Source: Escherichia coli O157:H7 (GTDB lineage: Bacteria; Pseudomonadota; Gammaproteobacteria; Enterobacterales; Enterobacteriaceae). Taken from it: a DNA stretch of 64,000 nt. Of this stretch, positions 26,401-29,400 are shown in pieces. The stretch's first letter is position 1, and each line of letters opens with the position of its first letter. Position numbers: made by a program. The stretch lies in assembly GCF_013167455.1 (NCBI RefSeq), contig NZ_CP038328.1; one strand, given 5' to 3'.

Positions 26401-29400
26401 GCGATGTCCCTGATGAACTTATTGATTTCACGTTTGAATGGAAAGGGCTGAAGAAATTATGCGTGGCAGTCTCCTTTCGGTCCATAATAGCAGAACAAAA
26501 GAAAGAGTCAGAAATGACGGTCAGATATTATATCAGTTCTGCTGATTTAACCGCAGAGAAGTTCGCCACAGCAATCCGAAACCACTGGCACGTGGAGAAT
26601 AAGCTGCACTGGCGTCTGGACGTGGTAGTGAATGAAGACGACTGCAAAATAAGAAGAGGAAATGCAGCAGAATTATTTTCAGGGATACGGCACATTGCTA
26701 TTAATATTTTGACGAATGATAAGGTATTCAAGGCAGGGTTAAGACGTAAGATGCGAAAAGCAGCCATGGACAGAAACTATCTGGCGTCAGTCTTTGCGGG
26801 GAGCGGGCTTTCGTAATCTTGCCCTGCCTGCTCACCTCCAGGCACTTCCACTACATCATGACCTGATCGGTGCCACCACTCCTCTTCACTATGACGTTAA
26901 CCTCCCCTCCTTGACACCACGCTTTTGTCTACATTCTACGCAAACGGCAACTTTTATAACCAGTGTAAAAATAACGTGCCGCAATAGTCATACCTATTAA
27001 TGGTAAAAAGCTGTCACAATTCATAAAAAACCTTAATATACGCCACCCTAAACATAACCAGCGTTAATGTAAGGTTTTTGTGTGGACTGGCTTCTTGATG
27101 TTTTTGCTACCTGGCTCTATGGCTTAAAAGTAATCGCGATAACGTTAGCGGTCATCATGTTCATCAGCGGGCTGGACGATTTTTTTATTGATGTCGTCTA
27201 CTGGGTACGCCGCATTAAACGCAAGTTGAGTGTTTATCGCCGCTACCCGCGAATGAGTTACCGCGAACTGTATAAACCAGATGAAAAACCGTTAGCGATT
27301 ATGGTTCCGGCGTGGAATGAAACGGGCGTCATCGGCAATATGGCCGAGCTGGCGGCGACCACGCTCGACTACGAAAACTATCATATCTTTGTTGGCACCT
27401 ACCCCAACGACCCGGACACTCAGCGTGATGTTGACGAAGTGTGCGCTCGCTTCCCGAATGTGCATAAGGTAGTCTGCGCGCGTCCTGGCCCCACCAGCAA
27501 AGCCGACTGTCTGAACAACGTGCTGGACGCCATCACCCAGTTTGAGCGTAGCGCCAATTTCGCTTTTGCTGGTTTTATTCTGCATGACGCCGAAGATGTG
27601 ATTTCACCGATGGAATTGCGTCTGTTCAACTATCTGGTCGAGCGTAAAGATCTGATTCAGATCCCGGTGTATCCGTTTGAACGCGAATGGACGCACTTCA
27701 CCAGCATGACTTACATTGATGAGTTTTCAGAGCTGCATGGCAAAGATGTTCCGGTGCGTGAAGCCCTCGCCGGACAAGTGCCCAGCGCAGGCGTCGGCAC
27801 CTGTTTCAGCCGCCGCGCCGTGACCGCTCTGTTAGCTGACGGTGACGGTATTGCTTTCGACGTGCAGAGTCTGACTGAAGATTACGACATTGGCTTCCGC
27901 CTGAAAGAAAAAGGTATGACGGAAATTTTTGTCCGTTTTCCGGTGGTGGACGAAGCCAAAGAACGCGAGCAGCGTAAATTTTTACAGCACGCACGGACGT
28001 CAAACATGATCTGCGTGCGCGAATATTTCCCCGATACCTTTTCGACTGCGGTTCGACAAAAATCTCGCTGGATCATCGGCATTGTTTTCCAGGGCTTTAA
28101 AACCCATAAATGGACCTCCAGCCTGACGCTGAACTACTTTCTCTGGCGCGACCGCAAAGGGGCAATCAGTAACTTTGTCAGCTTCCTCGCAATGCTGGTG
28201 ATGATCCAGCTTTTGCTGTTGCTGGCGTATGAAAGTTTGTGGCCCGATGCCTGGCATTTCCTTTCTATTTTTAGCGGCAGCGCATGGTTAATGACCCTGC
28301 TGTGGCTAAACTTTGGCTTGATGGTTAACCGCATCGTGCAGCGGGTGATTTTCGTCACTGGCTACTACGGCCTGACGCAGGGGCTACTATCTGTCCTGCG
28401 TCTTTTCTGGGGCAACCTGATTAACTTTATGGCCAACTGGCGCGCGTTAAAACAGGTACTTCAACACGGCGATCCACGTCGCGTCGCGTGGGATAAAACA
28501 ACGCATGACTTCCCCAGCGTCACTGGCGATACCCGCTCGTTGCGCCCGTTAGGTCAAATTCTGCTGGAAAATCAGGTCATCACTGAAGAACAGCTCGATA
28601 CAGCACTGCGTAATCGCGTCGAAGGTCTACGCCTGGGCGGTTCAATGCTGATGCAGGGGCTGATTAGCGCCGAGCAGCTGGCACAGGCGCTGGCAGAGCA
28701 AAACGGCGTGGCGTGGGAATCCATCGATGCCTGGCAGATCCCGTCCTCGCTGATTGCCGAAATGCCGGCCTCCGTGGCGCTGCATTATGCGGTACTGCCG
28801 CTGCGTCTGGAAAATGATGAGTTAATTGTCGGCAGTGAAGATGGTATTGACCCGGTTTCGCTGGCGGCCCTGACGCGTAAAGTCGGACGCAAAGTGCGTT
28901 ATGTCATTGTTCTGCGGGGACAAATTGTCACGGGGTTACGTCACTGGTATGCACGCCGACGCGGTCACGATCCGCGGGCAATGTTGTACAATGCGGTTCA
29001 GCATCAGTGGCTCACGGAACAGCAGGCCGGTGAAATCTGGCGGCAATATGTGCCGCATCAGTTCCTGTTCGCCGAAATACTGACCACGCTCGGTCATATT
29101 AATCGTTCAGCAATTAACGTGTTGTTATTGCGCCATGAACGCAGTTCTCTGCCGCTCGGCAAGTTTTTGGTCACCGAAGGCGTTATCAGCCAGGAAACGT
29201 TGGATCGCGTCCTGACAATTCAACGCGAATTACAAGTTTCGATGCAATCACTATTACTCAAAGCAGGTTTAAACACAGAACAGGTTGCGCAACTGGAGTC
29301 CGAAAATGAAGGAGAATAACCTTAATCGCGTCATCGGATGGTCTGGTTTACTGCTGACGTCTTTATTGAGTACCAGCGCACTCGCAGACAATATCGGCAC

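Follow-up and report, generated by a model that had tools for sequence, protein, structure and literature searches.

How many c-di-GMP receptor modules does the glycosyltransferase NfrB carry? The question is raised by the nfrB locus of an Escherichia coli O157:H7 strain, which was analysed here within a 64,000-nucleotide stretch of contig NZ_CP038328.1 (the window). An earlier note on this DNA had pointed to three peptides of the MshEN pattern in the C-terminal region of NfrB, and all three are present where it placed them, in the + frame: RPLGQILLENQVITEEQLDTAL (residues 488-509, nt 28543-28608), LRLGGSMLMQGLISAEQLAQALAEQ (residues 516-540, nt 28627-28701), and LPLGKFLVTEGVISQETLDRVL (residues 690-711, nt 29149-29214). 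Their description as "three tandem" motifs holds for the first two, which are adjacent, but not for the third, which is found some 150 residues further on, with a degenerate partner of its own at residues 662-685. A c-di-GMP site of the MshEN type consists of two 24-residue motifs (Wang 2016), so that three motifs do not equal three c-di-GMP modules. They correspond instead to one validated site and one half-degenerate second bundle.

The relaxed MshEN regular expression LG..[LVIM][LVIM]...[LVIF][LVI]....[LVI]...[LVI] matched NfrB three times, vs. 0.00245 matches expected per shuffled NfrB, and a six-frame translation of the whole 64 kb gave four matches, three of them inside NfrB. The motifs are not due to chance, because three matches were obtained where about 0.0025 are expected. 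For the third motif, a chance likeness within a leucine-rich helical region might be argued from the recurrence of short amphipathic helix patterns and from the fourth match in the window, an unrelated one at nt 42472. Besides the shuffling result, this explanation is opposed by an HMM E value of 6e-7, by a profile-to-PDB E value of 1e-6, and by conservation in orthologues at 29-60% identity, and its probability is negligible.

nfrB occupies nt 27082..29319 on the + strand in the ORF list, has a GTG start, and encodes 745 amino acids. Its product belongs to the NCBIfam equivalog NF008411 (NfrB), with 1332.7 bits (cutoff 1170) over residues 7-728. The gene is 100% identical in DNA to genes of O157 genomes annotated as nrfB, and the RefSeq name for the identical O157 gene is "cyclic di-3',5'-guanylate-activated glycosyltransferase." The product was assigned as a GT2 synthase of the inner membrane whose C-terminal regulatory region is cytoplasmic. 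Its GT2 catalytic domain spans residues 70-382 (nt 27289..28227, + strand; Pfam PF13632, E 2e-40, and PF13641, E 3.5e-35), confirming that the motifs are attached to a GT2 glycosyltransferase as had been proposed, and the signature of processive GT2 synthases (DxD, TED, QxxRW) is found in D169 (HDAED), TED265-267, and QKSRW326-330.

The nfrB-nfrA-ybcH operon begins with nfrB. nfrA (nt 29306..32278, + strand) encodes a protein of 990 amino acids with TPR repeats and an outer-membrane barrel (NF007302, 1886 bits; PF13283 NfrA_C match), and ybcH (nt 32279..33169, + strand) encodes a DUF4434 protein of 296 amino acids (PF14488, E 7e-69; NF007404, 520 bits). The two gene junctions that had been taken as signs of tight coupling are both there. 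The nfrA ATG at nt 29306, with GGAG 7 nt upstream, precedes the end of nfrB at nt 29319, giving an overlap of 14 nt (29306-29319), and the nfrA stop TAA (32276-32278) directly adjoins the ybcH ATG (32279), forming TAAATG at 32276-32281. The same 14-nt overlap was described by Junkermeier & Hengge 2021 (PMC8669469). Overlap and TAAATG junction fit translational coupling inside one operon. In this O157-type genome, a VgrG-Rhs-ISAs1 island is located between cusS and nfrB.

The first two peptides make up module 1, a canonical MshEN_N site (nt 28546..28701, + strand). It comprises the motifs M1 (residues 489-512, PLGQILLENQVITEEQLDTALRNR, with R488 just before) and M2 (residues 517-540, RLGGSMLMQGLISAEQLAQALAEQ), that is, two tandem 24-residue motifs with a short spacer of 4 residues (about 5 expected). 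The domain search of NfrB returned MshEN profiles: the NCBIfam c-di-GMP_motif profile NF053729 scored 54.6 bits (cutoff 38) on residues 489-540 over profile positions 1-53, and Pfam PF05157 MshEN scored 52.9 bits (E 3.8e-14) on residues 542-628 (nt 28705..28965, + strand), which is the MshEN_C alpha/beta subdomain adjoining the motifs and not the motifs themselves. The MshEN key residues checked were Leu2, Gly3, Gly10, Leu17, Leu21, and Gln24. M2 has 10 of 10 key positions, and M1 has 8 of 10, which was counted as a match; it lacks Gly10 (Gln) and Gln24 (Arg). The key residues of module 1 are kept in 26 orthologues, and the motifs persist in NfrB orthologues down to about 40% identity; Gln24 is absent from M1 in every orthologue examined. 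Module 1 is alignable in sequence to the c-di-GMP domains of MshE and PilF/PilB. An AF2 model of residues 480-745 (pLDDT 89, pTM 0.84) predicts a four-helix bundle and, after it, the MshEN_C subdomain, with strands and helices over residues 542-628, and its first 140 residues matched 5htl (c-di-GMP-bound MshE) and 8pdk (PilF GSPII-B) in Foldseek with TMt values of 0.70-0.75 (E 2e-6).

Module 1 has been shown by published experiments to be a c-di-GMP sensor. The fragment NfrB414-745 binds c-di-GMP specifically, with a Kd of 1.0 uM, as determined by DRaCALA and MST, and N4 plating needs the GT residues D169, D267, and W330 as well as the MshEN residues L490, G491, and L537 (Junkermeier & Hengge 2021, mBio, PMC8669469). 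N4 killing was abolished by G491L and reduced by G519S (Sellner et al. 2021, mBio, PMC8669472). In the protein analysed here, D169, D267, W330, L490, G491, L505, L509, L518, G519, and L537 are all at the published positions. As already known, the flagged motifs are the domain with which E. coli NfrB senses c-di-GMP, NfrB being the synthase that phage N4 depends on for infection, and the idea of c-di-GMP-gated exopolysaccharide synthesis by the nfrBA–ybcH system agrees with published experiments and with current annotation (NF008411, RefSeq). In this mechanism, NfrB is an inner-membrane family-2 glycosyltransferase that polymerises a surface glycan, namely, the N4 glycan receptor, which is probably ManNAc-based and is exported through NfrA, and the cytoplasmic C-terminal region is the c-di-GMP switch. 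DgcJ is the local source of c-di-GMP for module 1, in which M1 and M2 (residues 489-540) form one four-helix MshEN_N bundle holding one c-di-GMP, and this module, together with the MshEN_C subdomain, allosterically activates the GT domain.

The third motif is inferred to form the second, well-conserved half of another MshEN_N-like bundle, 53 residues long, at residues 662-714, termed module 2. Its halves are the degenerate motif Mx (residues 662-685, LFAEIL..., LFAEILTTLGHINRSAINVLLLRH; nt 29065..29136, + strand) and M3 (residues 691-714, PLGKFLVTEGVISQETLDRVLTIQ; nt 29152..29223, + strand). Together with the 5-residue spacer ERSSL they add up to exactly 53 residues, the spacing of a two-motif site, and the helix pattern of Mx in the AF2 models is like that of M1 and M2. 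M3 has 10 of 10 key positions and E. coli Mx has 5 of 10, with Phe663, Ala664, and His685 replacing Leu2, Gly3, and Gln24, so that the ligand contacts are not complete in both motifs. NF053729 scored 29.1 bits on residues 691-734 (E 6.3e-7, profile positions 1-44), below the cutoff of 38 bits. The homology of module 2 is upheld despite this score because a profile of 21 orthologue sequences matched the PilF GSPII-B c-di-GMP domain in the PDB with E values of 1e-6 to 5e-6. In this alignment Mx lies opposite motif I and M3 opposite motif II, which confirms the register. The module 2 profile aligns best to PilF GSPII-B and GSPII-C, and in a search of 1.8 billion proteins, unrelated multi-repeat MshEN proteins aligned mostly to query positions 27-83, corresponding to residues 662-718. 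A four-helix bundle is predicted for module 2, with a fold closest to c-di-GMP-bound MshE and PilF. When the module 2 profile was compared with the module 1 sequence by hhalign, only M3 was aligned, onto M1 (27 columns, probability 88%); this match supports repeat homology but fixes no register for a duplication of one module from the other.

Module 2 is followed by no MshEN_C subdomain; only a helical hairpin, M4 (residues 720-743, SMQSLLLKAGLNTEQVAQLESENE; nt 29239..29310, + strand), precedes the stop codon, and both AF2 models give it helices at 721-727 and 732-743. M4 is weakly conserved, only at positions 6 and 10 and there moderately, and may be the vestige of a third repeat in module 2. 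A pairing of M3 with M4, suggested by the NF053729 alignment to profile positions 1-44, was rejected: both the 1.8-billion-protein search and the profile-to-PDB comparison put the 53-residue unit at residues 662-714, and the poor conservation of M4 also disfavours it. Another family assignment for the third-motif region, as part of a PATAN/DUF4388 domain and not as an MshEN-type repeat, draws on Pfam PF14332, which matches NfrB in two stretches and passes its cutoff of 25 with 32.3 bits. These matches span only about profile positions 30-79 of 122, i.e., single 24-residue hairpins with no match to the core, and they fall on M1 as well as on the M3 region; on its own, the 110-residue C-terminal fragment misses the cutoff with 15.9 bits, and fold and profile searches favour MshEN and GSPII. 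The PATAN assignment was set aside as very improbable. FumaraseC_C, SHOCT_2, and DUF2949 were all below their cutoffs and represent generic helical hairpins, and fumarase structural matches had low Z scores (<=5.3).

Clear differences emerge between the two halves of module 2 in 44 dereplicated orthologues. M3 has Gly3 in 39 of 44 and Gln24 in 43 of 44, a conservation equal to that of the validated motif 2, and the third motif is retained across orthologues of 29-60% identity. At position 3 of Mx, Gly is present in 20 and Ala in 22 orthologues, and at position 24 His is present in 27 and Gln in only 6. The near-invariance of Gly3 and Gln24 in an M3 that has every key residue argues for module 2 as a second functional c-di-GMP site, or as a half-site completed by another protomer, with c-di-GMP being read at two places that are both needed for activation, since in MshEN these two residues touch the ligand and do not belong to the core (Wang 2016). 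The canonical 24+5+24 spacing and the predicted likeness to ligand-bound MshE and PilF point in the same direction. So does the orthologue survey, in which 10 of 25 sequences have Leu/Ile-Gly in all four motifs, and all four of the 25 that have lost Gly3 from M1 keep Gly in Mx and M3. Imperfect motifs are also tolerated elsewhere: Arg1 is dispensable, as PilF GSPII-B has K167 and L196 at position 1 and binds at 6 nM, and the validated M1 itself does without Gln24. The published fragment NfrB414-745 comprises both modules, and no stoichiometry was reported for it (PMC8669469), which leaves room for a second site.

However, in E. coli Mx the place of Gly3 is taken by Ala664, and the same G-to-A exchange obstructs the pocket of PilF GSPII-A, in which A41 is the sterically interfering residue (PMC12002112); in module 1, the Gly substitutions G491L and G519S impair function (PMC8669472). 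The prevalence of His at Mx position 24, the NF053729 score below the curated cutoff, and the absence of an MshEN_C subdomain after module 2 likewise speak against a second site. Orthologues that have lost Gly3 from M1 are not significantly more likely to retain it in Mx (hypergeometric p ~0.11), and three of the four orthologues are close relatives, so that compensation between modules is anecdotal. Furthermore, module 2 cannot stand in for module 1, because G491L alone abolishes N4 infection (PMC8669472). A second working site in this sense is unlikely, and it is similarly doubtful that the NfrB family as a whole consists of two-bundle receptors in which the C-terminal bundle (residues 662-714 in E. 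coli) is a real second nucleotide site. Were this the case, module 2 would be fully competent in about 40% of orthologues and the principal sensor where M1 has lost Gly3, the E. coli module would be weakened or partner-dependent, and NfrB would be a cooperative or dual-threshold c-di-GMP receptor, the sites of which were not separated by the 2021 studies.

Module 2 may also act as a ligand-independent docking or relay surface, either contacting DgcJ or latching intramolecularly onto the GT domain. Degenerate MshEN folds with such roles have precedents in the non-binding "landing pad" of PilF GSPII-A and in the N-domain of Xanthomonas PilB, which binds PilZ, and the PilB(N)-PilZ complex 7lkm was among the structural matches. 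DgcJ binds NfrB directly (PMC8669469), and the pTM of 0.84 for residues 480-745 suggests a fixed packing of module 2 against the MshEN domain. The strong conservation of residues 653-718, including the invariant W653, Q660, E686, S688, and Q718 outside the key motif positions, would suit a contact surface. However, ligand contact accounts more simply for the conservation of the M3 residues Gly3 and Gln24. A docking role is a serious candidate that falls somewhat short of even odds.

Taken together, nfrB is read as encoding a c-di-GMP-switched synthase with a validated module 1 and, in E. coli, a degenerate duplicate in module 2, a reading to which a probability of about 0.85 is given. Module 2 of E. 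coli is best understood as a diverged duplicate; in those orthologues, about 40%, whose four motifs all have Leu-Gly, the module may have remained functional as a site. It is settled that NfrB is a c-di-GMP-activated exopolysaccharide synthase needed for N4 adsorption, and its MshEN domain is known from both genetic and biochemical work. The 2021 papers, in their available text, describe one MshEN domain and, in the wording of one of them, "a domain of unknown function," with no mention there of a second bundle at residues 662-714 (PMC8669469, PMC8669472). The present analysis makes a small anatomical addition, namely, that this C-terminal domain contains a conserved second MshEN_N-like bundle. 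No solved NfrB structure was found among the PDB entries searched, and no NfrB cryo-EM or follow-up biochemistry in the literature searched. Module 2 may bear on whether the local DgcJ signal is read at one site or two, and on where in NfrB the contact with DgcJ is made or the signal is passed on to the catalytic domain.

Comparison with known systems places this locus next to the NfrBA-YbcH-DgcJ system of K-12, with which it shares the same NfrB protein, length, residue numbering, operon layout, 14-nt overlap, and RefSeq functional name. The gene itself is no different; what differs is the O157-type genome with its VgrG-Rhs-ISAs1 island in the cusS-nfrB interval. In Vibrio cholerae MshE (MshEN; Wang et al. 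2016, PDB 5HTL), the domain is N-terminal to an ATPase, whereas that of NfrB is C-terminal to a GT2 synthase. Compared with MshE, NfrB M1 has Pro1 (with Arg one residue earlier), Gln10, and Arg24, the spacer is 4 residues, and module 2 has a degenerate first motif and no MshEN_C subdomain. Thermus thermophilus PilF, with its GSPII-A/B/C domains (Neissner et al. 2024, 2025), resembles NfrB in combining several MshEN-type bundles of unequal quality in one protein. GSPII-B binds tightly without Arg at position 1, the non-binding GSPII-A pairs a good motif with a degenerate one (Q-to-H, G-to-A), and GSPII-C has three consecutive motifs, like Mx-M3-M4 of NfrB, with the third at the M4-equivalent place. 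However, PilF carries complete GSPII domains, with both bundle and alpha/beta subdomain, on a pilus ATPase, whereas in NfrB a glycosyltransferase ends C-terminally in module 2, which consists of a bundle and a short hairpin. Another parallel is that of BcsA, with its C-terminal PilZ domain. The receptor folds are unrelated, a PilZ beta-barrel in BcsA vs. an MshEN helical bundle in NfrB, which lies outside that family, but both proteins are processive GT2 exopolysaccharide synthases activated by c-di-GMP at a fused C-terminal receptor, and both obtain the signal from a dedicated local diguanylate cyclase, as considered in the discussion of PMC8669472.

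The ORF at 27082..29319 (plus strand, GTG start, 745 aa) is nfrB, annotated in RefSeq as "cyclic di-3',5'-guanylate-activated glycosyltransferase" with nfrA and ybcH downstream, and its product scored 1332.7 bits against the NfrB equivalog NF008411 (cutoff 1170). Its DNA matches O157-type E. coli chromosomes at 100% identity, and of 5426 complete E. coli genomes, 5092 contain a match to nfrB. Pfam GT2 domains at aa 70-382 agree with the attachment to a GT2 glycosyltransferase proposed in the earlier note. MshEN profiles also matched: the Pfam model PF05157 at aa 542-628, which represents the alpha/beta subdomain between the motif pairs and leaves the motifs themselves outside, and NCBIfam NF053729, a 53-residue c-di-GMP motif, on two stretches of NfrB. 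Submitted alone, aa 489-540 reached 54.6 bits (cutoff 38) and aa 691-734 reached 29.1 bits (E 6e-7).

According to Wang et al. 2016, the MshEN motif comprises 24 residues, RLGxxLLxxGLIxxxxLxxxLxxQ, and two motifs with a 5-residue spacer form a four-helix bundle of 53 residues that takes up a single c-di-GMP, contacted by Gly3 and Gln24; Leu2 clusters hydrophobically with Leu17 and Leu21 of the partner motif. All three MshEN-type peptides reported earlier are present on the plus strand within NfrB, namely RPLGQILLENQVITEEQLDTAL (aa 488-509, nt 28543-28608), LRLGGSMLMQGLISAEQLAQALAEQ (aa 516-540, nt 28627-28701) and LPLGKFLVTEGVISQETLDRVL (aa 690-711, nt 29149-29214). The first two are in tandem as claimed, whereas the third is not in tandem with them. 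A relaxed MshEN pattern occurs 3 times in NfrB versus 0.00245 expected per shuffled NfrB, and a six-frame translation of the whole window gave 4 matches, 3 of them in NfrB. The fourth, at 42472 in a plus frame (LGSKVIPPRLLFAGIILAML), is hydrophobic with a membrane-type appearance; it serves as a background control and is probably due to chance.

Candidate units were registered on their Leu-Gly, and key positions were scored out of 10. This gave M1 (aa 489-512, PLGQILLENQVITEEQLDTALRNR, 8/10), M2 (aa 517-540, RLGGSMLMQGLISAEQLAQALAEQ, 10/10), Mx (aa 662-685, LFAEILTTLGHINRSAINVLLLRH, 5/10), M3 (aa 691-714, PLGKFLVTEGVISQETLDRVLTIQ, 10/10) and M4 (aa 720-743, SMQSLLLKAGLNTEQVAQLESENE), a weak match. 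M1 and M2 constitute the single validated c-di-GMP site of NfrB (module 1), and in a model of aa 480-745 (pLDDT 89, pTM 0.84) the first 140 residues match full MshEN/GSPII domains (TMt 0.70-0.75). With the spacer ERSSL between them, Mx and M3 add up to exactly 53 residues. When NfrB aa 636-745 (window 28987-29316) was searched against 1.84 billion representative proteins, unrelated proteins of 4-12 tandem MshEN motifs aligned mostly to query positions ~27-83, corresponding to aa 662-718. A profile of 21 orthologue sequences matched the crystallised c-di-GMP domain GSPII-B of Thermus thermophilus PilF in the PDB (E 1e-6 to 5e-6), in a register that equates motif I with Mx and motif II with M3. 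Both results, which are independent, place the second module (module 2) at Mx and M3 rather than at M3 and M4. Module 2 would be a duplicated copy of the MshEN_N bundle that has diverged. Many metagenomic proteins from the large search (among them P0116, P0125, P0127, P0129 and P0117) are made up almost wholly of 4-12 tandem 24-residue MshEN-type motifs, and some of them carry coiled-coil or beta-rich tails and lack a recognisable output domain. The related equivalog NF012033 (PRK15489), a 703-aa "glycosyl transferase family protein", aligned to NfrB (window 27082-29316) only through aa 647, over profile positions 8-654 of 703; as judged from this alignment, it may be a sister family with GT2 and first MshEN domains, in which the C-terminal second bundle is possibly different or absent.

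Junkermeier & Hengge 2021 (PMC8669469) report specific binding of c-di-GMP to NfrB414-745 with a Kd of 1.0 uM, DgcJ as a dedicated cyclase in contact with NfrB, and impaired N4 plating for D169A, D267A, W330A, L490A, L490A/L537A and G491L; Sellner et al. 2021 (PMC8669472) report that G491L abolished and G519S reduced N4 killing. The published experiments show that c-di-GMP made by DgcJ binds the C-terminal region of NfrB, that Gly491 and Gly519 of module 1 and the GT2 active site are needed, and that the secreted glycan product acts as the initial receptor of phage N4. Since all published mutant residues sit at identical positions in the window's protein, the earlier reading of c-di-GMP-gated glycan synthesis is supported, and is already published and annotated.

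All units except M4 are recognisable in 26 orthologues (~40-90% identity). Gln is absent from M1 position 24 in all 26, being replaced by Arg, Pro or Lys, while Pro mostly occupies position 1 and is immediately preceded by Arg; as the validated M1 (window 28546-28617) has these departures, a working MshEN site tolerates them. Several points favour canonical c-di-GMP binding by E. coli module 2, which would make it a functional second site: M1 itself lacks Gln24, and deviations at motif position 1 are tolerated, since GSPII-B has Lys and Leu there and binds at 6 nM. In 44 module 2 sequences dereplicated at 80% identity, the ligand-contacting Gly3 (39/44) and Gln24 (43/44) of M3 are near-invariant; M3 has Leu2 in 38/44, Leu17 in 41/44 and Leu21 in 36/44. 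The one binding assay was done on a fragment that spans both modules and gave no stoichiometry. Mx argues against such a site: Ala664 replaces Gly3, and the equivalent A41 blocks the pocket of GSPII-A, a PilF domain that does not bind and for which the importance of the third-position Gly was stressed (PMC12002112); His685 replaces Gln24, corresponding to H33 of GSPII-A. Mx has Gly (20/44) or Ala (22/44) at position 3, Gln (6/44) or His (27/44) at 24, Leu (25/44) or Phe (18/44) at 2, and Leu at 17 (29/44) and 21 (43/44). The aa 691-734 fragment also falls below the curated NF053729 cutoff, and a functional second site in E. coli is considered unlikely. A structural, relay or docking role is favoured from this analysis, with precedents in GSPII-A as a "landing pad" and in the PilZ-binding N-domain of Xanthomonas PilB (7lkm), which is among the structural matches. 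Of 25 orthologues having both modules, 10 have Leu/Ile-Gly in each of the four motifs and 10 show the enterobacterial Gly-to-Ala change in Mx. Another four (P0045, P0046, P0047 and P0109) have lost M1 Gly3 (Asp or Gln), the residue at which G491L abolishes function in E. coli, and keep Leu-Gly in Mx and M3. This hints that in certain lineages module 2 may act as the sensor, but the association does not reach significance (p about 0.11) and the lineages concerned are related.

The nfrA ATG at 29306, preceded 7 nt upstream by GGAG, gives the 14-nt overlap with nfrB, and the nfrA stop TAA directly adjoins the ybcH ATG (32276-32281). Both junctions are thus as described previously, and are compatible with translational coupling within one operon; the overlap was already pointed out by Junkermeier & Hengge 2021 (PMC8669469). 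Upstream, between cusS (13987-15435) and nfrB, this O157-type genome has an ~11-kb island (16029-26816) encoding VgrG (16029-17930), a DcrB-related protein, a 4.8-kb RHS core protein (18439-23289), an orphan zincin-like metallopeptidase toxin tip (23883-25217), followed by small ORFs, and an ISAs1-family transposase (25680-26816). Only 265 bp separate the end of the transposase from the nfrB GTG, so the native nfrB promoter context may differ from that of K-12. Downstream, envY (33352-34113) is directly followed by tRNA-Arg(TCT) (minus strand, 34159-34235), fimZ and sfmF, with no prophage genes between envY and the tRNA (33352-34235); in K-12, this interval presumably holds the DLP12 prophage, appY and ompT.

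The feature is already known, since it is E. coli NfrB itself. In the incomplete literature searched, neither the two primary NfrB papers nor later reviews or any paper from 2022 onward mention the second bundle. A second NfrB stretch is already hinted at by the NCBIfam motif model, and the bundle represents a modest annotation refinement rather than a discovery. NfrB works in the manner of BcsA-PilZ, in which a fused c-di-GMP receptor gates a GT2 synthase, but its receptor fold is unrelated. Module 2 most resembles the multi-domain case of PilF, where one domain does not bind, two domains do and one domain has three motifs.
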